In this document: positions 1-12,747 of the stretch, in pieces
Numbering within the stretch: the stretch's first letter is position 1
Layout: every line of letters starts with the position of its first letter
DNA from: Eledone cirrhosa
Taxonomy: Eukaryota
NCBI GenBank assembly: GCA_964016885.1
Contig: OZ024744.1
Location: 106,702,001 to 106,766,000, forward strand
Direction of reading: 5' to 3'
DNA: 64,000 nucleotides
Notes under the pieces: model-generated
The model's database searches: none
What the model was told of the DNA's origin: nothing
The model's input: only the letters and a program-made list of their open reading frames with translations
Translations under genes and position numbers: made by a program

Positions 1-3000
1 GTTGATCATGTTGGTGTGTTGAATACCTTGGCCTTCCTTGATCCCTTGTTGTCTCTAGGGTTGTTCTTGTTGGTGTGGTGAATACCTTGGCCTTCATTGA
101 TCCCTAGTTATCTGTAGGGTTGTTCTTGTTGGTGTGGTGTATACCTTGGCCTTCCTTGATCCCTAGTTATCTGTAGAGTTGTTCATGTTGGTCTGGTGAA
201 TACCTTGACCCTCATTGATCCCTAGTTTTCTGTAGGGTTGTTCATGTTGGTGTGGTGAATACCTTGGCCTTCATTGATCCCTAGTTATCTGTACGGTTCT
301 TCATGTTGGTGTGGTGCATACCTTGGCCCTCATTGATCCCTAGTTAACTGTAGGGTTCTGCATGTTTGTGTGGTGAATACCTTGGCCATCCTTGATCCCT
401 AGTTATCGGTTGGGTTATTCATGTTGGTGTGGTGAATACCTTGGCCTTCCTTGATCCCTAGTTATCGGTAGGGTTGTTCCTGTTGGTGTGGTGAATACCT
501 TGGCCTTCATTGATCCCTAGTTATCTGTAGTGGTATTCATGTCTGTGGTGAATACCTTGACCCTCATTGTTCCCCAGTTATCTGTAGGGTTGTTCATTTT
601 GGTGTGGTGAATACCTTCGCTTTCCTTGATCCCTAGTTATCTTTAGGGTTGTTCTTGTTGGTGTGGTGTATACCTTGGCCTTCCTTGATCCCTAGTTATC
701 TGTAGTGTTGTTCATGTTGGTGTGGTGAATACCTTGGCCTTCCTTGATCCCTAGTTATCTGTAGGGTTGTTCTTGTTGGTGTGGTGAATACCTTGGCCTT
801 CATTGATCCCTAGTTTTCTGTAGGGTTGTTCTTGTTGATGTGGTGTATACCTTGGCCTTCAGTGATCCCTAGTTATCTCTAGGGTTCTTCATGTTGGTGT
901 GGTGAATACCTTGGCCTTCATTGATCCCTAGTTATCTGTAGGGTTGTTCTTGTTGGTGTGGTGTATACCTTGGCCTTCATTGATCCCTAGTTATCTGTAG
1001 GGTTGTTCATGTTGGTGTGGTGAATACCTTGACCCTCATTGATCCCTAGTTATCTGTAGGGTTGTTCATGTTGGTGTGGTGCATACCTTGACTCTCATTG
1101 ATCCCTAGTTATCTGTAGGGTTCTTCATGTTGGTGTGGTGAATACCTTGGCCTTCCTTGATTCCTAGTTATCGGTAGGGTTATTCATGTTGGTGTGGTGA
1201 ATACCTTGGCCTTCCTTGATCCCTAGTTATCGGTAGGGTTATTCATGTTGGTGTGGTGAATACCTCTGCCTTCATTGATCCCTAGTTATCTGTAGAGGTG
1301 TTCATGTTGGTTTGGTGAATACCTTGGCCCTCATTGTTCCCCAGTTATCTGTAGGGTTGTTCATTTTGGTGTGGTGAATACCTTGGCTTTCCTTGATCCC
1401 TAGTTATCTGTAGGGTTGTTCATGTTGGTGTGTTGAATACCTCGGCCTTCCTTGATCCCTAGTTATCTTTAGGGTTGTTCTTGTTGGTGTGGTGTATACC
1501 TTGGCCTTCCTTGTTCCCTAGTTATCTGTAGGGTTGTTCATGTTGGTGTGTTGAATACCTTGGCCTTCCTTGATTCCTAGATATCTGTAGGGTTGTTCCT
1601 CTTGGTGTGGTGAATACCTTGGCCCTCATTGTTCCCCATTATCTGTAGGGTTGTTCTTGTTGGTGTGGTGAACACCTTGGCCTTCCTTGATCCCTAGTTA
1701 TCTTTAGGGTTGTTCTTGTTGGTGTGGTGTATACCTTGGCCTTCCTTGATCCCTAGTTATCTCTAGGGTTGTTCTTGTTGGTGTGGTGAATACCTTGGCG
1801 TTCCTTGATCCTCAGTTATCTGTAGGTTTGTTCTTGTTGGTGTGGTGAATACCTTGGCCTTCCTTGATCCCTAGATATCTGTAGGGTTGTTCCTCTTGGT
1901 GTGGTGAATACCTTGGCCCTCATTGTTCCCCAGTTATCTGTAGGGTTGTTAATTTTGGTGTGGTGATTACCTTCGCTTTCCTTGATACCTAGTTATCTGT
2001 AGGGTTGTTCATGTTGGTGTGTTGAATACCTTGGCCTTCCTTGATCGTTAGTTATCTTTAGGGTTGTTCTTGTTGGTGTGGTGCATACCTTGACTCTCAT
2101 TGATCCCTAGTTATCTGTAGGGTTCTTCATGTTGGTGTGGTGAATACCTTGGCCTTCCTTGATTCCTAGTTATCTGTAGGGTTATTCATGTTGGTGTGGT
2201 GAATACCTTGGCCTTCCTTGATCCCTAGTTATCGGTAGGGTTATTCATGTTGGTGTGGTGAATACCTCTGCCTTCATTGATCCCTAGTTATCTGTACAGG
2301 TGTTCATGTTGGTTTGGTGAATACCTTGGCCCTCATTGTTCCCCAGTTATCTGTAGGGTTGTTCATTTTGGTGTGGTGAATACCTTGGCTTTCCTTGATC
2401 CCTAGTTATCTGTAGGGTTGTTCATGTTGGTGTGTTGAATACCTTGGCCTTCCTTGATCCCTAGTTATCTTTAGGGTTGTTCTTGTTGATGTGGTGTATA
2501 CCTTGGCCTTCCTTGTTCCCTAGTTATCTGTAGGGTTGTTCATGTTGGTGTGTTGAATACCTTGGCCTTCCTTGATCCCTAGTTATCTCTAGGGTTGTCC
2601 TTGTTGGTATGGTGAATACCTTGGCCTTCATTGATCCCTAGTTATCTGTAGGGTTGTTCTCGTTGGTGTGGTGAGTACCTTGGTCGTCATTGATCCCTAG
2701 TTATCTGTAGGGTTGTTTATGTTGGTGTGGTGAATACCTTGGCCTTCGTTGATCCCTAGTTATCTGTAGGGTTGTTCATGTTGGTCTGGTGAATACCTTG
2801 ACCCTCATTGATCCCTAGTTTTCTGTAGGGTTGTTCATGTTGGTGTGGTGAATACCTTGGCCTTCATTGATCCTAGTTATCTGTATGGGTGTTCATGTCG
2901 GTGTGGTGAATACCTTGGCCTTCCTTGATCCCTAGTTATCAGTAGGGTTATTCTTGTTGGTGTGGTGAATACCTTGGCCTTCATTGATCCCTACATATCT

Positions 3001-3660
3001 GTAGTATTGTTCATGTTGGTGTGGTTAATACCTTGGCCTTCATTGATCCCTACATATCTGTTGTATTGTTCATGTTGGCGTGGTGAATACCTTGGCCCTC
3101 ATTGATCCTTAGTTATCTGTAGGGTTGTACCTGTTGGTGTCGTGAATACCTTGGCCTTCATTGATCCCTAGTTATCTGTAGGGTTGTTCATGTTGGTGCG
3201 GTGAATACCTTGGCCTTCCTTGATCCCTAGTTATCTGTAGGGTTGTTCATGTTGGTGTGGTGAATACCTTGACTCTCTTTGATCCCTAGTTATCTGTAAG
3301 GTTGTTCATGTTGGTGTGGTGAATACCTTGGCCTTCATTGATCCCTAGTTATCTGCAGGGCTGTTCATGTTGGTGTGGTGAATACCTTGGCCCTCATTGA
3401 TCCCTAATTATCTGTAAGGTTGTTCATGTTGGTGTGGTGAAAACCTTGGCTTTCCTTGATCCCCAGATATCAGTAGTGTTGTTCTTGTTGGCGTGGTGAA
3501 TACCTTGTCCTTCCTTGATCCCTAGTTATCTGTAGGGTTTTTCTTGTTGGTGTGGTGAATACCTTGGCCCTCATTGATCCCTAGTTATCTGTAGGGTTGT
3601 TCATGTTGTTGTGGTGAATACCTTGGCCTTTATTGATCTCTAGTCATCTGTAGGGTTGTT
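1..3660. repeat. 59-bp tandem satellite, about 62 monomers visible, truncated by the window start
   Basis: Consensus GTTGTTCATGTTGGTGTGGTGAATACCTTGGCCTTCCTTGATCCCTAGTTATCTGTAGG (59 nt) repeats head-to-tail; the register shifts 1 nt per 60-nt line. Periodicity stops after ...TAGGGTTGTT at 3660. Confidence 0.98.
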
Positions 3661-3999
3661 GTAGTTCCCTAATTACTGAATTCCCATCTATTTCTATTGA
3701 GTTTGTGCTTGTCATTCTGCCTTTCTTCAATGTTACTATACAGCATTTTCCAGTCCAAATTCAATCCCCACATAATCGCTGAACACCTTAATTGTCTTCA
3801 ACAATCCTTCCAATTTGTTGTCATTTTTGGCATACAGCTTCCAGTCATCAATTAAAACAGATAATTTATTGTTTTACTGGCTATTTTGTAGCCATATTTT
3901 CTTTTGTTGAGTGTTAAAGACAACTGTGTGAGTGCAATGTAAAATATTGGAGGAGAAAACAAATCCCCCTAAAAAATATCACAGTTAATATTTATTATT
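3602..3999 (-). pseudogene. Decayed reverse transcriptase fragment of a non-LTR retrotransposon, R4/Dong-like (RLE-type)
   Basis: Manual minus-strand translation with two frameshifts: INCDIF*GDLFSPPIFYIALTQLSLTLNKRKYGYKIASKTINYLF / IDDWKLYAKNDNKLEGLLKTIKVFSDYVGIEFGLE / CCIVTLKKGRMTSTNSIEIDGNSVIRELQQPYR*LEINKGQGIHHNNM. Matches in order and spacing the motifs GIFQGDSLSP (*GD at 3971-3963), HLFYMDDLKLY (DD at 3849-3844), FSxDIGMEFGLDKC (about 3780-3743) and YKYLG, which are typical of R4/Dong-clade RTs. Clade call is from recalled motifs. Confidence 0.88.
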
Positions 4000-4470
4000 G
4001 GGGAGCCTCTCGGTGTTGACAAAAATCAATGAGACACTGTTTTCCAGAGGACTTCCGGTTCAGGGCCCATGGATAACTTCCAGAAATCCCTGACCTAGCA
4101 GTGCTACCTTGGAGCTTTGCCAGTTTGAGATAAACTCTACAGGCATGCAAATGCCATCAGTCTGAGGTGCACACAGGATAATGAAATCATCCTGCATGTA
4201 CTCTTCTAGTGTCCGAGTATTGCTGAATTGTATGTTTATGTGGAGCACCTGTTGTCACGTGTAGGACAGATCCAACTGTCAACTGGCAGTTTTTATCTGC
4301 CTTGTGGCCATGGCAAAAGTGGTGTGTGGTGGACGCATTTGAAAGGGTTGAAGACAACTACTTTCCTGTTCAGCGAAACACTGATTAACTTTTTCAGATT
4401 TCACTTGAAGAGGAAAATCAGGGTGGAGAGGGAAGAGCTGCCTTCCAACCAGTTTGTTGTAAGGTGGGTG
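4000..4470 (+). pseudogene. 5'-truncated, decayed C-terminus of an L1/Tx1-like LINE ORF2 (zf-RVT / CCHC knuckle region)
   Basis: One plus frame from 4000 reads GEPLGVDKNQ*DTVFQRTSGSGPMDNFQKSLT*QCYLGALPV*DKLYRHANAISLRCTQDNEIILHVLF*CPSIAELYVYVEHLLSRVGQIQLST...VWWTHLKGLKTTTFLFSETLINFFRFHLKRKIRVEREELPSNQFVVRWV. A neighbouring frame supplies AVFICLVAMAK. The pattern W..xxGALPV...C...ExxxHxxFxC...AKxxxW...ER...F..RW is the L1/Tx1 ORF2 end. Stops at 4096, 4126 and 4207 are one substitution from W, R and Q; the first knuckle Cys appears to be deleted. Confidence 0.8.
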
Positions 4471-7228
4471 AGAGGGAAGTGTTGCCTTCTAACCAGTTTG
4501 TTGTAAGAAGAGTGAGAGCGAAGTGCTGCCTTCCAACCAGTTTGTTGTAAAGTGGGTGAGAGGGAAGTGCTGCCTTCCAACCAGTTTGTTGTAAAGTGGG
4601 TGAGAGGGAAGTGCTGCCTTCCAACCAGTTTGTTGTAAAGTGGGTGAGAGGGAAGTGCTGCATTCCAACCAGTTTGTTGTAAGGTGGGTGAGAGGGAAGT
4701 GTTGCCTTCCGACCTGTTTGTTATAAGGTGGGCGAGAGGGAAGTGCTGCTTTCCAACCTGTTTGTTTAAGGTGGGTGAGAAGGAAGTGCTGCCTTCCAAC
4801 CAGTTTATTGTAAAGTGGGTGAGAGGGAAGTGCTGCCTTCCAACCAGTTTGTTGTAAAGTGGGTGAGAGGGAAGAGCTGCCTTCCAACCAGTTTGTTGTA
4901 AGGTGGGTGAGAGGGAAGTGCTGCCTTCCAACTAGTTTGTTGTAAGTTGGGTGAGAGGGAAGTGCTGTCTTTCAACCAGTTTATTGTAAGGTGGGTGAGA
5001 GGGAAGTGCTGCCTTCCAACCAGTTTGTTGTAAGGTGGGTGAGAGGGAAGTGCTGCCTTCCAACCAGTTTGTTGTAAAGTGGGTGAGAGGGAAGTGCTGC
5101 CTTCTAACCAGTTTATTGTAAGAAGAGTGAGAGCGAAGTGCTGCCTTCCAACCAGTTTATTGTAAGGTGGGTGAGAGGGAAGTGCTGCCTTCTAACCAGT
5201 TTGTTGTAAGAAGAGTGCGAGCGAAGTGCTGCCTTCCAACCAGTTTGTTGTAAACTGGGTGAGAGGGAAGTGCTGCCTTCCAACACGTTTGTTGTAAAGT
5301 GGGTGAGAGGGAAGTGCTGCCTTCCAACCAGTTTGTTGTAAAGTGGGTGAGAGGGAAGTGCTGCATTCCAACCAGTTTGTTGTAAGGTGGGTGAGAGGGA
5401 AGTGTTGCCTTCTAACCAGTTTGTTGTAAGAAGAGTGAGAGCGAAGTGCTGCCTTCCAACCAGTTTGTTGTAAAGTGGGTGAGAGGGAAGTGCTGCCTTC
5501 CAACCAGTTTGTTGTAAAGTGGGTGAGAGGGAAGTGCTGCCTTCCAACCAGTTTGTTGTAAAGTGGGTGAGAGGGAAGTGCTGCATTCCAACCAGTTTGT
5601 TGTAAGGTGGGTGAGAGGGAAGTGTTGCCTTCCGACCTGTTTGTTATAAGGTGGGCGAGAGGGAAGTGCTGCTTTCCAACCTGTTTGTTTAAGGTGGGTG
5701 AGAAGGAAGTGCTGCCTTCCAACCAGTTTATTGTAAAGTGGGTGAGAGGGAAGTGCTGCCTTCCAACCAGTTTGTTGTAAAGTGGGTGAGAGGGAAGAGC
5801 TGCCTTCCAACCAGTTTGTTGTAAGGTGGGTGAGAGGGAAGTGCTGCCTTCCAACTAGTTTGTTGTAAGTTGGGTGAGAGGGAAGTGCTGTCTTTCAACC
5901 AGTTTATTGTAAGGTGGGTGAGAGGGAAGTGCTGCCTTCCAACCAGTTTGTTGTAAGGTGGGTGAGAGGGAAGTGCTGCCTTCCAACCAGTTTGTTGTAA
6001 AGTGGGTGAGAGGGAAGTGCTGCCTTCTAACCAGTTTATTGTAAGAAGAGTGAGAGCGAAGTGCTGCCTTCCAACCAGTTTATTGTAAGGTGGGTGAGAG
6101 GGAAGTGCTGCCTTCTAACCAGTTTGTTGTAAGAAGAGTGCGAGCGAAGTGCTGCCTTCCAACCAGTTTGTTGTAAACTGGGTGAGAGGGAAGTGCTGCC
6201 TTCCAACACGTTTGTTGTAAAGTGGGTGAGAGGGAAGTGCTGCCTTCCAACCAGTTTGTTGTAAAGTGGGTGAGAGGGAAGTGCTGCATTCCAACCAGTT
6301 TGTTGTAAGGTGGGTGAGAGGGAAGTGTTGCCTTCCGACCTGTTTGTTATAAGGTGGGCGAGAGGGAAGTGCTGCTTTCCAACCTGTTTGTTTAAGGTGG
6401 GTGAGAAGGAAGTGCTGCCTTCTAACCAGTTTATTGTAAAGTGGGTGAGAGGGAAGTGCTGCCTTCCAACCAGTTTGTTGTAAAGTGGGTGAGAGGGAAG
6501 AGCTGCCTTCCAACCAGTTTGTTGTAAGGTGGGTGAGAGGGAAGTGCTGCCTTCCAACTAGTTTGTTGTAAGTTGGGTGAGAGGGAAGTGCTGCCTTTCA
6601 ACCAGTTTATTGTAAGGTGGGTGAGAGGGAAGTGCTGCCTTCCAACCAGTTTGTTGTAAGGTGGGTGAGAGGGAAGTGCTGCCTTCTAACCAGTTTGTTG
6701 TAAGGTGGGTGAGAGGGAAGTGCTGCCTTCCAACAAGTTTGTTGTAAGTTGGGTGAGAGGGAAGTGCTGCCTTTCAACCAGTTTATTGTAAGGTGGGTGA
6801 GAGGGAAGTGCTGCCTTCCAACCTGTTTGTTGTAAGCTGGGTGAGAAGGAATGCTGCCTTCCAGCCAGTTTGTTGTAAGATGGGTGAGAAGGAAGTGCTG
6901 CCTTCCAACCAGTTTGTTGTAAAGTGGGTGAGAGGGAAGTGCTGGCTTCCGACCAGTTTGTTGTAAAGTGGGTGAGAGGGAAGTGCTGACTTCCAACCAG
7001 CTTGTTGTAAAGTGGGTGAGAGGGAAGTTCTGCCTTCCAACCAGTTTGTTGTAATATGGGTGAGAGGGAAGTGCTGCATTCCAACCAGTTTGTTGTAAGG
7101 TGGGTGAGAGGGAAGTGCTGCAGTCCAACCTGTTTGTTGTAAGGTGGGTGAGAGGGAAGTGCTGCCTTCCGGCCTGTTTGTTATAAAGTGGGTGAGAGGG
7201 AAGTGCTGCCTTCCAACCAGTTTGTTGT
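4426..7228. repeat. 44-bp tandem satellite, left arm (about 64 monomers)
   Basis: Consensus GAGAGGGAAGTGCTGCCTTCCAACCAGTTTGTTGTAAGGTGGGT; the first two GAGAGGGAAG occurrences are at 4426 and 4470 (period 44). Confidence 0.98.
7225..7228 (+). other. 4-bp target-site duplication TTGT, left copy (right copy 12748-12751)
   Basis: CCAGTTTG[TTGT]-TGTAGTAAG...GCTAAA-[TTGT]AAAGTGGGTGAG. Removing the element and one TTGT restores a normal monomer. Confidence 0.9.
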
Positions 7229-7463
7229 TGTAGTAAGACGCCTCACGCTCCTTGATAGAACAACGCCGGTTGAGAACGCCAGAAAGAAAAGACAGACAGC
7301 CACTGGAAAGCCGACTGATCACACGCAAGAAATCAGCCTCTGTACAACACCATTGTTTGTGCTACAACAAAAAATAAACGTATATTTCATCTCTAATTTC
7401 TGCTGTTGAAATAATTATTATGTCACTCGTATCTCGATAACATCTATAACTAATGCTGCTAAA
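7229..7463 (+). repeat. 5' LTR (235 bp)
   Basis: TGTAGTAAGACG...TGCTGCTAAA; direct repeat of 12513-12747 with 7 mismatches by manual count and no net length difference; AATAAA at 7373-7378. Confidence 0.96.
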
Positions 7464-7464
7464 G

Positions 7465-7477
7465 TGGTGACCGACGT
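7465..7477 (+). promoter_or_regulatory. Primer-binding site, tRNA-Trp-like
   Basis: TGGTGACCGACGT lies 1 nt after the LTR. The canonical tRNA-Trp PBS is TGGTGACCCCGACGT, so this copy lacks two C. Confidence 0.8.
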
Positions 7478-8352
7478 AAGAATTTAACGCAGCCCTTCTT
7501 ATACATTCAGTTGAACTTTTATTACCACGTTGCCGGCCTTTTTTCGCAACTTGCAAAAATAAAAAATATTCCTTTTAAAATTATCGAAAAATTAGTAGTA
7601 TTTCAAAAACTTTTTGCTACACTCGACAACAACAACGACAGCAGCAGCAGCGACAACATTGTTTAACCACTGACCAAAAGAGGGAATAGTGAGTGGCAGC
7701 TTCATAGCCTTACCGACGCAAACCACCACACATCGGAAATATCAAAACGATTCATTCGTGTCGATAATTTAGAGCAACTTTTTTTTATTCACTTGAATAT
7801 TTCATTTCCGTTGCCAACTTTTTCGCAACTTACAGAAGAAAAAAGAAAAAAGTGTATTTTTCCAAGGTGGCGTTGCGTTCCTTCCCAGTTTTGTAACGGA
7901 CACATTTTTTGAATTGCGTGTGTGTTCCATGACTGGTCAAGAGAGAAGAGACTAAACTTTTTTTTGTGAACATAACTGCCCCGCATGGGGATATACATGC
8001 CTTACCTTTTTCTAAGGGATTTTTAGCCACTGGCTACCTTTGTTGATATCCAACGCAGATATATTTAAAAAAAACAAAAAAACATTTTTTTTCCTCCTTT
8101 CTTTTTTTTTACCTTATTTGATTTGGCTGGTTCGTTGAAGCAACGCGAGGGGACAGACGTTGAAGGAAAATTTTTTTTTAAAAGATATATATCTGTATTT
8201 TATGTATTTTTCATATTTCCTTATGTTTTGAATGTCTGTTTCTTTTTGCCCTTTAACTTTTTCTCAATATTGGCTGTTCTCTTTTCACTGTACAAGGGTA
8301 CACTAATTGCTGTTTAGATATATATGTATATATTTTTTTTATAAAAGTTGAC

Positions 8353-9133
8353 ATGAATGTGCCACATTTGCCCGCCTTTACTGGAAAACCTAAGATGTGG
8401 TTTGCCCAGTTACAGACGTATTTTACGGTCTGTAAGACCGAATCTGACCAGCGCCTCGCTGTACTGATTAGCGGCCTTCCCCCTAATCTAGCAGATTCGG
8501 TCCAAGACCTAATTACAGACCCCCCCCCCCTCTGACTTGACGTATGAGTTTTTGAAGGGCGAGATTTTGAGGAGGAATTGTAAGTCGGTAGAGAGTCGTT
8601 TTCGGTCATTGATCGAGGACGAACTATTAGGTGACAGGACCCCTACCGCTTTTCTCCGGGATTTGCGGGATTTGAGCGATTCCCAAGATCAGGATAGCCC
8701 TTTCCTGAAGCAATTGTTCTTCTCTCGCCTACCTCAAGAGGTACAGGCGATCCTAACCCATATTCTAGAGGTGAATACCCTGGATCACATTGCTGTCTCT
8801 GCTGACAAAATTGTAGAGGTGACGAAGAGGGACACTTCGAAGCCAAAGTACGTTGCTTCCTCTTCTCTTCCTCAATCACGCTCATCAGCGTCTGATGGCA
8901 ATTTAATCACCACAATGGAAGCCATGACTCGTCAAATGGCGGAGTTGTGCAAGGAATTCAGGTCCTTTGGACGGCAGAGGAGCCGCTCACGACGTTATTC
9001 AACTTCTCGCCACCGTAGCCCTTCCAACACACCAAGAACACCATATTGTTATTACCATGAAAGATATGGTAAAAAAGCCGCCCGTTGTAGGCCTCCTTGT
9101 GCTTACGAGGGAAAAGACGACCAGAGTCACTAA
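8353..9133 (+). pseudogene. gag: gag, interrupted by a +1 frameshift in a C11 run at 8520-8530
   Basis: ORF 8353-8535 (PHLPAF...MWFAQLQTYF) joins ORF 8537-9133 (YEFLKGEIL...LGDRTPTAFLR...FFSRLP...CYYHERYGKKAARCRPPC) if one C is removed, giving DPPPSDLTYEFLK. Confidence 0.92.
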
Positions 9134-9468
9134 CGGCGGATAGTGCGCTCTGCGAAACATCTAACCGCCACTTTTTCATTGAGGACCTGCTGTCAGGTAG
9201 AGCTTTTCTGGTTGACACAGGTGCAGCTTGTTCCGTATGGCCTGTGTGTTGTATGAAGGAGACTCCCCCTGAGACGCCTATTGAGTTGCAGGCAGTAAAT
9301 TGTTCGCCGATTCGAACTTTAGGACAAATCTCGTTACCCTTGCAGTTTCGTAATCTGCGGCGCGAGTTTAAATGGATATTTGCTGTCGCTGCCTTGCCGT
9401 ATCCGATTCTAGGCGCGGATTTTCTCCACCATTTTTCATTGACGGTGGACCTTCGTGGTAACGCCTAA
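9097..9468 (+). pseudogene. pol: Aspartic protease portion of pol, separated from RT by a 1-nt deletion near 9460
   Basis: FLVDTGAACSVWP and PILGADFL motifs. GGT AA CGC CTA ATT GAT would read GKRLID with one more A and continue in the RT frame. Confidence 0.9.
9109..9169 (+). promoter_or_regulatory. Programmed -1 ribosomal frameshift signal (slippery heptamer plus predicted H-type pseudoknot)
   Basis: G_GGA_AAA at 9109-9115 in the gag frame; 6-nt spacer; stem 1 9122-9132/9141-9152; loop GGCGG 9135-9139 complementary to CCGCC 9165-9169; the protease ORF is in the -1 frame. Confidence 0.85.
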
Positions 9469-12400
9469 TTGATGGCATCACGGGATTAACTGTTGTTGGC
9501 AAGGCGGCAGGAGTTCCAACGGTTAGCCCGACATTTTTTCTTGCTAACACCGGTGATCCTTTCCATGCGTTGTTGAACTCGTTCCCGCAACTGACTCGGG
9601 GAAATTTTCGATTTGATGAACCAACTCATACCACGGAGCACTTCATATCTACAACTGGTGCTCCCGTTTTCTCTCGTCCTCGTCGCTTGCCTCCGGACAA
9701 ACTCAAAGCAGCACGATCAGAGTTTGATCATATGCTGCAAATGGGGATTATTCGTCCGTCCACGAGCCCGTGGGCGTCCCCATTACACATGGTACCGAAA
9801 GCGAATGGCGCTTGGAGACCTACTGGAGATTATCGACGCCTGAATTCGATAACAGTACCGGACCGTTATCCTATCCCTCATCTGCAAGACTTTGCGTCTT
9901 CGTTGCAGGGATGCAAGATATTCTCCAAACTGGATTTAATTCGTGCGTACCATCAAATTCCTGTCCATAAAAATGACATTCCAAAAACGGCTATAGTTAC
10001 ACCATTTGGGTCTTTCGAGTTTTTGACTATGCCATTCGGATTAAGGAATGCCGCTAGTACTTTTCAGCGGTTTATGGATGAGGTTACTCGCGGCCTCGAT
10101 TTCGTCTATACCTATATTGACGATCTGCTCATTGCTAGTTCTTCTCCAGAGCAGCATACGCACCATTTGAATCTTCTTTTCCGCCGATTGAAGGCGTATA
10201 ACGTGCAGCTTAATGCACCCAAATGTGTTTTTGGCGCTGAGTCACTGACTTTCTTGGGTCACGTCATCGATGCTGACGGTATTCGACCCCGGCCTGAGCG
10301 AGTTAAGGTCATAGAGGATTTGCCTCCACCGACCTCACTACGTCAGTTACGCCAGTTCTTAGGTCTGGTTAACCTTTATAGGCGTTTCGTGCCAAATTGT
10401 GCAAAATTGCTTTTCTCCCTGACAGAAATTTTGAAAAATTGTCGGAGGAAGAACAAAGATATTTCTTTGACAGACACTCAACTTACTGATTTTCAGCACG
10501 CCAAAACCGTTTTGGCTAATGCTTCGTTACTGACTCTCCCGGTACCCGGTGCAAAGCTAACGCTTTGTGTTGATGCATCGGATATCGCTGTGGGCGCAGT
10601 ACTACAGCAAAACATCAATGGTTACCAGCAACCGCTGGAGTTTTTTTCCCAAAAGCTAAATCCTGCTGAGACGCGCTACAGCACCTTTGGAAGAGAGCTT
10701 TTAGCCATCTATTTGGCCGTGAAACATTTTTCACATGTGCTAGAGGGTAGACAATTTACTATCCTCACTGACCATAAACCATTGACTTTTGCTTTGAGAG
10801 CGAAGGCTGATAAATACTCGCCCAGAGAGACGAGACACCTTGATTTAATCTCGCAATATACGAGTGATATCCAGCACATTCCGGGTTCACTAAATACAGC
10901 GGCCGATGCTTTGTCCCGCTTACCCGTGACAGCGATCTCGTCATCCTCTGACATAGATCTGACTCGTTTGGCTGCGGATCAGCCTTCCCTTGAGTCATTG
11001 GATGTCACATCGCCCGAGTTTGCGAATTGCGAGATGAAATACTTGCCTCTGTCGACTGCAGTTGGCCAAATTCTCTGCGACGTCTCTTTGGACGTGCCTA
11101 GGCCCTTCGTTCCAGAGAATCATCGTCGGACCGTGTTTCTGGGATTACATTGTATCTCGCATCCAGGATCTTCTGCCACAGCAAAGCTCATATCAGCTAG
11201 ATTTTTCTGGCCAAATATGAGGCGTGAAATTGCTGCTTGGTGCCGTTCCTGCGTCGCTTGCCAGAGATCAAAGGTCCATCGACACGTCAAGGCTCCCCTG
11301 GGTACCTTTGCTAACCCAGATGCGCGTTTTTCACATATTCATATTGACATAGTGGGACCTTGGCCTGTCAGCGATGGTTTTTCTTATCTACTTACCGTCA
11401 TTGACCGTTTTTCGAGATGGCCTGAGGCCATCCCCTTGAAAAACATCACCGCGGAGACAACAGCACATGCTCTTGTGTCTGGATGGATCTCTCGTTATGG
11501 AGTTCCATCCACAATAACTACCGACCGTGGACGACAGTTCGAGTCGAGCCTTTTCCTCGAGCTGTCAAAATTAATTGGTGCTAAACGCATTAGAACTACC
11601 GCATACCATCCCGCTTCGAATGGTATGGTGGAGCGTTTTCACCGCCAACTGAAGGCCTCCTTAATGGCCTCAATGGACTCGGCGCATTGGAGCGAGTACC
11701 TCCCTATTGTGCTACTAGGGATTCGGTCAACGGTGAAGGTCGACTTTGGATTTTCACCGGCCGAAGTACTGTACGGTGCCCCTCTGACGTTGCCCGGGCA
11801 AATGCTTGCCCCTATCGATCTTGATGCCCAAGATCACGCTTCCTACGTGTCCCGTTTGCGCTCCTATTTCCAGGATTTGCCGCCAATGGACACTAGGAAA
11901 CAAACTGTCAAGACTGCTGTCCCGAGGGATATTGCCTCGTGGACGCATGTTTTTGTAAGGAATGATACGGTGAAGCCCCCGCTCACACAACCTTACACTG
12001 GACCTTACCGTGTCTTAGCGCGCTCGGCTAAGCATTTCACGTTAGATATTAAGGGGTCCAGGGAGACAGTTACATTAGACAGGCTTAAGCAGGCGCACCT
12101 TGACACGGACGCTGTGGTTCCTGATCCACGAACCCCTTCGTATTTGCCTGTTGAGCGAACGACTGTTCCTGAACCACCATCATCGCCTGTCCCTGCACCA
12201 CCACCATCGCCACGTTACAAGACCACGACCCATTCAGGTCGTAGGGTCCACTGGCCCAAAACATTTTGCAGCACCGTCTATATTGAGACTATGTTAGCTG
12301 CACCTTCTTTTTGCCTCTGTGTTTCTGCTTTTTCTTTGCCTTGTTTTTTTATGCATGCATGTCGTTTTTTTAAAAGCATTTTTCAAATCCTTATTCTGGA

Positions 12401-12470
12401 TTCAATTTTTGCTAGAGCGGATAGCTCCCCCTTGTTGCATTGTTCGCCATCTTACTCAACATGTGAGTAA
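9462..12470 (+). CDS. pol: pol: reverse transcriptase, RNase H and integrase (stop-free frame)
   Basis: RT: [39 protein letters not shown] at 10113-10124. RNase H: VDASD, RELLA, TDHKPL, ADALSR. Integrase: HCISHPG...[31 protein letters not shown] module, and the terminal SGRRVHWP motif. Confidence 0.96.
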
Positions 12471-12512
12471 TGACATCGATTTTCGATAATTTGAAAATCT
12501 GGCTCGAGGTAC

Positions 12513-12747
12513 TGTAGTAAGACGCCTCACGCTCCTTGATAGAACAACGCCGGTTGAGAACACCAGAAAGAAAAGACAGACAGCCACTGGAAAGCCGACT
12601 GATCACACGGCAGAAACCAGCCTCTGTACAACACCATTGTTTGTGCTACATCAAAAAATAAACGTATATTTCATCTCTAATTTCTGCTGTTGAAATAATT
12701 ATTATGTCACTCGTATCTCGATAACATTTATAACTAATACTGCTAAA
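12513..12747 (+). repeat. 3' LTR (235 bp)
   Basis: TGTAGTAAGACG...TACTGCTAAA, about 97% identical to the 5' LTR; AATAAA at 12657-12662. Confidence 0.96.

Follow-up and report, generated by a model that had tools for sequence, protein, structure and literature searches.

How do two different satellites come to lie less than a kilobase apart, with nothing but retroelement sequence between them? The question is raised by positions 106,702,001-106,766,000 of scaffold C28 (our label) in the 3.0-Gb assembly of Eledone cirrhosa; the window, as we call this stretch, is 64,000 nucleotides long. Tandem Repeats Finder (TRF) places a 59-bp unit at window positions 1-3660 (satA) and a 44-bp unit at 4421-7228 and 12748-63997 (satB). 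The edges of the two arrays are about 766-770 bases apart, and the spacer consists wholly of long interspersed nuclear element (LINE) sequence. The original prediction, made from the bare sequence, held that both satellites were born from the LINE fragments next to them and that the spacer marks a local hotspot for tandem amplification. Our data favor the first idea and not the second: each array sits in one decayed LINE copy and likely grew there in place, and the two copies would have been brought together by a later deletion. To this explanation as a whole, deletion included, we assign a probability of roughly 0.78.

The spacer joins the two predicted pieces, a reverse transcriptase (RT) fragment on the minus strand (3661-3995) and a C-terminal fragment of open reading frame 2 (ORF2; zf-RVT region) on the plus strand (3998-4425, with four stops and two internal deletions). 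Alignment confirms both runs as LINE and sets their ends at 3995 and 3998, leaving two bases in between. Over 3661-3995, nine dispersed copies of the minus family are 84-88% identical to the window without gaps, and the longer stretch 3601-3995 matches at 82-85% in 9/9 loci with near-identical copies left out. For the plus family, eleven dispersed copies are 79-85% identical over 3998-4424 and, with gaps, 73-78% over 3998-4474 (11/11 loci). Searched against Pfam on their own, the window fragments give nothing above cut-off (RVT_1 at E 0.025 for the minus piece, no family for the plus piece); their identity as LINEs therefore rests on intact relatives. A translated search (tblastn) matches the minus piece to residues 673-806 of the RT-bearing protein P0003 and the plus piece to residues 957-1136 of an intact 1152-aa ORF2 of the same genome.

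The domain content of the plus LINE was read from L140, a relative whose identity to the window piece is about 81%, and not from the fragment itself; L140 carries Exo_endo_phos, RVT_1 and zf-RVT above cut-off, that is, apurinic/apyrimidinic endonuclease (APE), RT and zinc domains. Upstream of its ORF2 lies a 499-aa frame that matches no Pfam family above cut-off. The best match of the 1152-aa ORF2 among solved proteins is LINE-1 ORF2p (E 1e-50), and the only named homolog of the family is from Argonauta hians (64% identical). The family also includes a young subfamily, in which L140 and L141 are 97.9% identical over 6 kb and many copies have the full 1152-aa ORF2. For the minus family, RVT_1 is present in all of the 120 homologs listed, zf-RVT also in three and an APE family in none; a relative with an RT has five solved matches, namely three named R2 proteins and two reverse transcriptase-like entries. 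A C-terminal region, which we take to comprise a zinc knuckle and a restriction-like endonuclease, is visible in P0003 and, in degenerate form, in the far flank of satA. Judged by these homologies, the plus element is a member of the L1 group and the minus element of the R2 group; the finer clade labels used below, Tx1 (plus) and probably R4/Dong (minus), are our presumption.

The origin of the arrays can be read from their far sides. satA, which begins 43.3 kb before the window, comprises 47,006 bp with 786 monomers; past its far end (C28 ~106,657,580-106,658,654), the R2-like/R4-type LINE is taken up again in register over about 1.1 kb, corresponding to residues 800-1206 of P0003 and 80-82% identical to the three best dispersed copies. 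satB spans 89,220 bp including a 5.5-kb long terminal repeat (LTR) element (array alone ~84 kb, ~1,880 monomers) and runs 29.6 kb beyond the end of the window, to C28 106,795,645. There, the remainder of the Tx1-like LINE follows (106,795,646-106,795,955), with the last ORF2 codons, the stop, the 3' untranslated region (UTR) and an (ATT)n tail. Protein coordinates carry on across satA and across satB, and individual dispersed copies align to both sides of each array, with the overlap falling on the unit. Because the LINE picks up in register where the array stops, each array is best described as an internal expansion of one LINE copy.

The monomers themselves agree with this. The satA unit, a segment of the R2-like LINE on the minus strand, encodes about QPYRYLGINEGQGIHHTNM. 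As predicted, each monomer is the next segment of its LINE: alignments with dispersed copies run from the unique fragments through the first monomer, and the monomers reach a mean identity of 86% (satA) and 88% (satB) when compared with one dispersed copy each. Both units are single-copy in the 11 dispersed copies displayed per family, apart from a partial deletion in one satB-family copy; in the five closest Tx1-like copies the unit is not in tandem either, and a second match in L170 is 1.4 kb away. The view of two separate satellites, each derived from LINE coding sequence that is not itself repetitive and each joined to its source copy to this day, is therefore upheld. The claim that both frames read straight into the monomers holds in part: alignments pass through the first monomer on both sides, but the minus frame contains two frameshifts, so that only the last ~49 codons are read into satA, and the plus frame is interrupted by its stops. 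The two arrays are not simple outward extensions of their fragments, since each LINE continues on the far side. Rolling-circle reinsertion, one of the mechanisms put forward, is not needed to explain the origin, as each array has the two halves of its LINE on either side, in register.

A further feature of satellites derived from transposable elements (TEs) and expanded in situ, next to homology in register, far-side resumption and a unit that is single-copy in relatives, is direct repeats at the boundaries, which are found here as well. The ends of the satB unit form an exact GAGAG direct repeat, while points 44 bases apart share at least five bases at 0.5% of 3,372 positions. For satA, 7/8 bases match when the end state of the dispersed copies is assumed for the source (null: 0/1,017 positions), and position 4 of the array shows letters of both repeat arms. 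Seeding was thus likely a tandem duplication of 59 or 44 bases inside a LINE copy, guided by microhomology and possibly produced by slippage or a template switch from one direct repeat to the other, and subsequent growth and homogenisation could have proceeded by unequal exchange or gene conversion. Monomers diverge from the array majority by 5-8% in satA and 6-8% in satB. There is no gradient toward the source, as the ten monomers at either end of an array lie no nearer to the LINE than the array mean, and a lag scan, which is weakened by indels, detected no array-wide higher-order periods.

Within satB, a proximal block of 63 monomers (4426-7228, plus strand) is separated from the main block (12748-64000, plus strand) by an LTR retrotransposon on the plus strand (7229-12747), which we take to be Ty3/Gypsy-like. 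It shows the order RT, RNase H, integrase, a 4-bp target duplication and an open pol frame of 976 codons, and its gag and protease regions are broken; the LTRs of about 235 bp are 96.6% identical and both end in AA instead of CA. In the proximal part (4509-6354), a 923-bp block of 21 monomers is duplicated with 99.5% identity, which points to recent turnover. Neither array appears to have a function, and we saw no sign of one.

The two satellites differ strongly in their distribution. All genome matches of a satB junction pattern (313/313) fall at this locus, and the 17/17 matches of one satA pattern fall in three C28 loci: i) the main one, ii) a 1.4-kb array at 106.09 Mb and iii) a 39-kb array at 112.48-112.52 Mb. 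The right flanks of the two paralogous arrays are 97.0% and 94.6% identical to that of the window. Since the flanks of all three loci have 25 derived states in common, with 9, 0 and 6 private ones, we conclude that satA arose a single time and that the cassette of array and flank was copied afterwards. The copy at 106.09 Mb (L046:8583-L047:470) retains about 490 bases of right flank, no left flank and zero private derived states. From end to end, each satA array keeps a variant profile of its own. These data also bear on an outside origin of the monomers, from satellites elsewhere or from tandem repeats in LINE masters that landed in homologous LINE copies. satA has indeed moved with its flank at least twice; yet the dispersed copies have one unit, the satB junction pattern occurs nowhere else in the genome and the three satA loci descend from a single LINE copy, which makes such an origin extremely improbable.

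Several further relationships between the 106.7-Mb and 112.5-Mb regions were considered and dismissed. A Tx1-like 5' piece adjoins the left side of the 112.5-Mb cassette; it does not represent the other half of the window element, as the two belong to different subfamilies. Relatives of this 5' piece match the window piece at 70-75% in 9/12 cases and not at all in 3, and apart from one 58-base match they have no similarity to the window 3' UTR. A long segmental duplication between the regions was rejected as well: only the cassette is clearly common to both, and matches of 1.4 kb and 0.5 kb could be dispersed repeats. Apparent inverted copies of satA near 112.43-112.46 Mb and of satB at 106.87 Mb turned out to have only short words in common with unrelated 13-bp and 49-bp arrays, respectively. 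The former is a CA-rich array of about 30 kb (L054-L057, 112.434-112.465 Mb); the 1.3-kb insert that splits it is 91% similar to DNA lying 2.5 kb to the left of satA in the main locus. Besides, a five-copy 73-bp array with flank is present at both 112.537 Mb (L142:7865-8393) and 106.915 Mb (L151:8643-9171) with 90% identity; it may be left over from shared ancestry of the two places or represent a mobile element that contains an internal repeat.

The two bases at 3996-3997 look like a secondary deletion junction from comparison with a satA paralog (L002) and six Tx1-like copies. In both paralogous cassettes, the minus LINE, truncated here, runs on past 3995, and neither a Tx1-like 3' piece nor satB follows. 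The window Tx1-like copy is about 89% identical to its five closest relatives among the best 40 of 1,921 candidates scored (88-93% among themselves). Judged from these identities, the Tx1-like copy is probably older than the satA cassette duplication and the present spacing secondary; together with the continuation of the paralogs past 3995, this makes a later deletion the probable source of the junction. Monomer divergence and the inserted LTR element, with its 96.6% identical LTRs, suggest that satB is not much younger than the duplication of satA.

As an alternative, the Tx1-like LINE could have inserted in 5'-truncated form at 3995 of the satA cassette, deleting its target, with satB growing afterwards, so that the adjacency would be primary and due to (ATT)n-like targeting. 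The join does resemble a short ATT remnant, the tail of the element is (ATT)n and the two LINE families are often neighbours. An insertion younger than the cassette is nevertheless difficult to reconcile with the absence of any sibling above ~89% among the best 40 of 1,921 candidates scored, given that insertion-free cassette paralogs are 94.6-97% identical. Furthermore, R4-type sequence does not resume after the Tx1-like tail. Such a continuation beyond satB would be the mark of a clean insertion that duplicated its target; it has no copy near the window locus, and its C28 matches are the two paralogous loci only. For the DNA that follows the tail, the search gave no paralog but short repeat matches only. 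We therefore regard an insertion at 3995 as unlikely.

A trivial explanation would be an assembly mis-join or an array-mediated swap of flanks between the satA arrays at 106.7 and 112.5 Mb, both of which are tens of kb long. The Tx1-like 5' piece left of the 112.5-Mb cassette would fit this, and outside contigs do not bridge the junction. On the other hand, the junction lies in non-periodic DNA without any N in the 184 kb around the locus, each satA array has a separate variant profile throughout, and the 5' piece stems from another Tx1-like subfamily. In addition, a contig of run X2, possibly the assembly's own sample, is identical to the window over 3729-3831, a stretch in which the paralogs show 4 and 8 differences. 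A mis-join is thus unlikely, and we see very little room for this explanation as a whole.

The back-to-back arrangement of the two LINEs is itself not exceptional. The plus family is present in 6/16 minus-family loci, which were picked by similarity and not at random, compared to 4/59 of the larger background probes (Fisher p 0.005; p 0.012 after dropping 11 all-array probes), while an RTE-like control was found in 0/16 and 10/59, respectively. All nine neighbour pairs passing a 45% identity filter are on opposite strands; six are back-to-back, and in 5/9 an ATT/AAT run of at least 6 units lies in between. Two further opposite-strand pairs (L010, L139) pass only a 42% filter. Shared (AAT)n microsatellite targets are a likely reason for the neighbourhood of the two families. 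Two full-length Tx1-like copies were examined, and each is bordered by ATT runs, a small sample from a family whose tail is itself (ATT)n; the 3' end of the minus LINE in the window has no clear AAT/ATT run. Loci with both families are L009, L010, L012, L015, L022, L027, L029, L140, L152 and L161.

The spacing of arrays was examined with a common definition (unit of at least 20 bases, at least 15 distinct triplets, at least 5 copies and at least 300 bases) in 59 probes of 10 kb (L071-L129): 20 evenly spaced on C28, 20 on C1-C4 and 19 on smaller scaffolds. Such complex-unit arrays cover 44% of the C28 probes, 22% of C1-C4 and 10% of the smaller scaffolds, and 12/59 probes are wholly array. They are mostly of different units, long on the big scaffolds, short and numerous on the small ones. 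C28 (136.5 Mb), richer in arrays than the other sets of probes, comes after much smaller scaffolds in the numbering and may, as a guess from this numbering, be a sex chromosome. In the 334 kb around the locus, we counted 23 arrays, and 6/22 gaps between neighbours do not exceed 1 kb, one of them joining two variants of a single unit. The chance of another array within 766 bases of an edge amounts, by a hand estimate from the densities, to about 12% locally and 5% genome-wide. Hence, the close spacing of satA and satB is ordinary in an array-crowded region.

This also answers the claim of an amplification hotspot within about 800 bp. Such a hotspot would require that the junction came first and that an unstable satA, or the back-to-back LINE junction itself, triggered satB via fork stalling and re-replication. 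satB does exist solely beside satA, both arrays are very large and array density per 10 kb of non-array DNA is 1.7 locally compared to 0.45 on C28 and 0.13 on the four largest scaffolds. However, satA and its flank are found at two other loci, in one case as a 39-kb array, with neither the Tx1-like 3' piece nor satB, and gaps of 88, 251, 267 and 919 bases separate other nearby arrays. Moreover, satB monomers are as diverged as those of satA, and satB already holds an LTR element whose LTRs, 3.4% different, are about as old as the satA duplication. As close pairs are common locally, the junction appears secondary and the back-to-back LINE layout is common, we consider a hotspot of this size improbable. 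What survives of the claim is its weaker, regional form, the local richness in arrays, and not an effect below the kilobase scale.

Several points nevertheless weigh against in-place growth followed by deletion. The microhomology of satA needs an inferred source state; the flank of this copy matches exactly over only 3 bases, for which the null is 5.5%, and the seed case for satA is therefore weaker than that for satB. A closer Tx1-like sibling could be missed by genome searches that score the best 40 candidates. The deletion may have preceded the birth of satB, which would then have arisen 430 bases from the satA cassette. The local array density is about four times the scaffold average, so that some regional effect exists. 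Finally, none of the contigs listed from two public runs spans the spacer, and neither an outside read nor a contig crosses the 3995/3998 join; run X1, with its small share, carries no weight as evidence.

The proposed survey of other array edges supports the idea that satellites arise from retroelements in this genome. It was carried out in a 0.56-Mb library of loci gathered in this analysis and is therefore under-detecting. Several other arrays are retroelement-seeded, with units of 47-61 bases that match one dispersed short repeat, presumably a SINE (short interspersed nuclear element), in many loci, and 24 kb past the end of satB a dispersed repeat runs on into a 73-bp array. From the dispersed short repeat, arrays with units of 47-49 and 61 bases recur in L072, L077, L080, L115, L119, L126, L128, L058, L069 and L070, apparently as repeated births from one segment. 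When other arrays were tested for continuation on both sides, with the monomer included in both queries, a clear case was seen only at L125. With 44%, 22% and 10% array coverage by scaffold class, the larger lead lies at the genome-wide level. It is conceivable, if rather doubtful, that the genome acts as a satellite nursery, in which microhomology-bounded duplications anywhere, even in LINE coding regions, grow to tens of kb at their birthplace (10-44% of the sampled DNA, with many sources probably readable) and a large array raises the rate of births next to it, satB being such a secondary birth. If true, arrays dated by host-element divergence and nested insertions would provide a very large natural series of satellite birth and growth.

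Compared with known systems, the satA/satB pair is real and unusually well preserved, an instance of a process already described rather than of a new mechanism. Satellites usually lose the traces of their origin; in this case, the two source copies, the two breakpoints, a cassette duplication and a datable insertion survive, so that seed, growth and spread are readable from one locus, which makes it a good teaching and test case. Literature searches, with most subscription journals outside their coverage, found no paper on TE-derived satellites in cephalopods. The neighbourhood of the two LINE families recalls Dong, Kibi and Koshi, which target TAA, TC and TTC microsatellites, respectively (PMC3812793), Dong being placed in the R4 lineage (PMC3774820). 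Both families of Eledone appear to sit at (AAT)n/(ATT)n runs and adjoin on opposite strands; an (ATT)n-associated Tx1-like family with sites in common with a Dong-like family, as is likely here, is not described in the available passages of these papers.

Satellites homologous to LINE coding sequence are described, in the part of a review available to us, for Phodopus (PROsat) and seal (Pvc 20), both from L1 ORF2, and for chicken (HinfI/SCR1, from partial ORF2 and 3' UTR of CR1), with the conclusion that a tandem repeat can be seeded by any part of an element (PMC9659126). In contrast to these, the whole monomer is here one contiguous LINE segment with the source copy on both sides and readable breakpoints, and the sources are R2-like and Tx1-like elements in a mollusc. 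The sSat of squamates, according to the sections seen, consists of tandem units from part of a SINE with the remainder of the element at one end, sometimes at both, and has many independent origins with up to 1000 units per locus (PMC10702118). The attachment to the element remainder is comparable, whereas in Eledone the sources are LINE ORFs, with ~790 and ~1,880 units at three loci and one locus. A further known system is human minisatellites and satellites, for which the consulted excerpts report that 23% are TE-derived, 601 of them linked to L1, and that they arose by local duplication and expansion inside a TE copy (PMC3389668); short direct repeats flank Alu-derived arrays (Jurka and Gentles, cited in PMC3389668). 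Expansion within a TE copy and direct repeats at the array ends are common to both systems. Since the human set, by the same excerpts, totals 1.05 Mb over 7,276 repeats (PMC3389668), its arrays are far shorter than the 47 and 84 kb reached by satA and satB.

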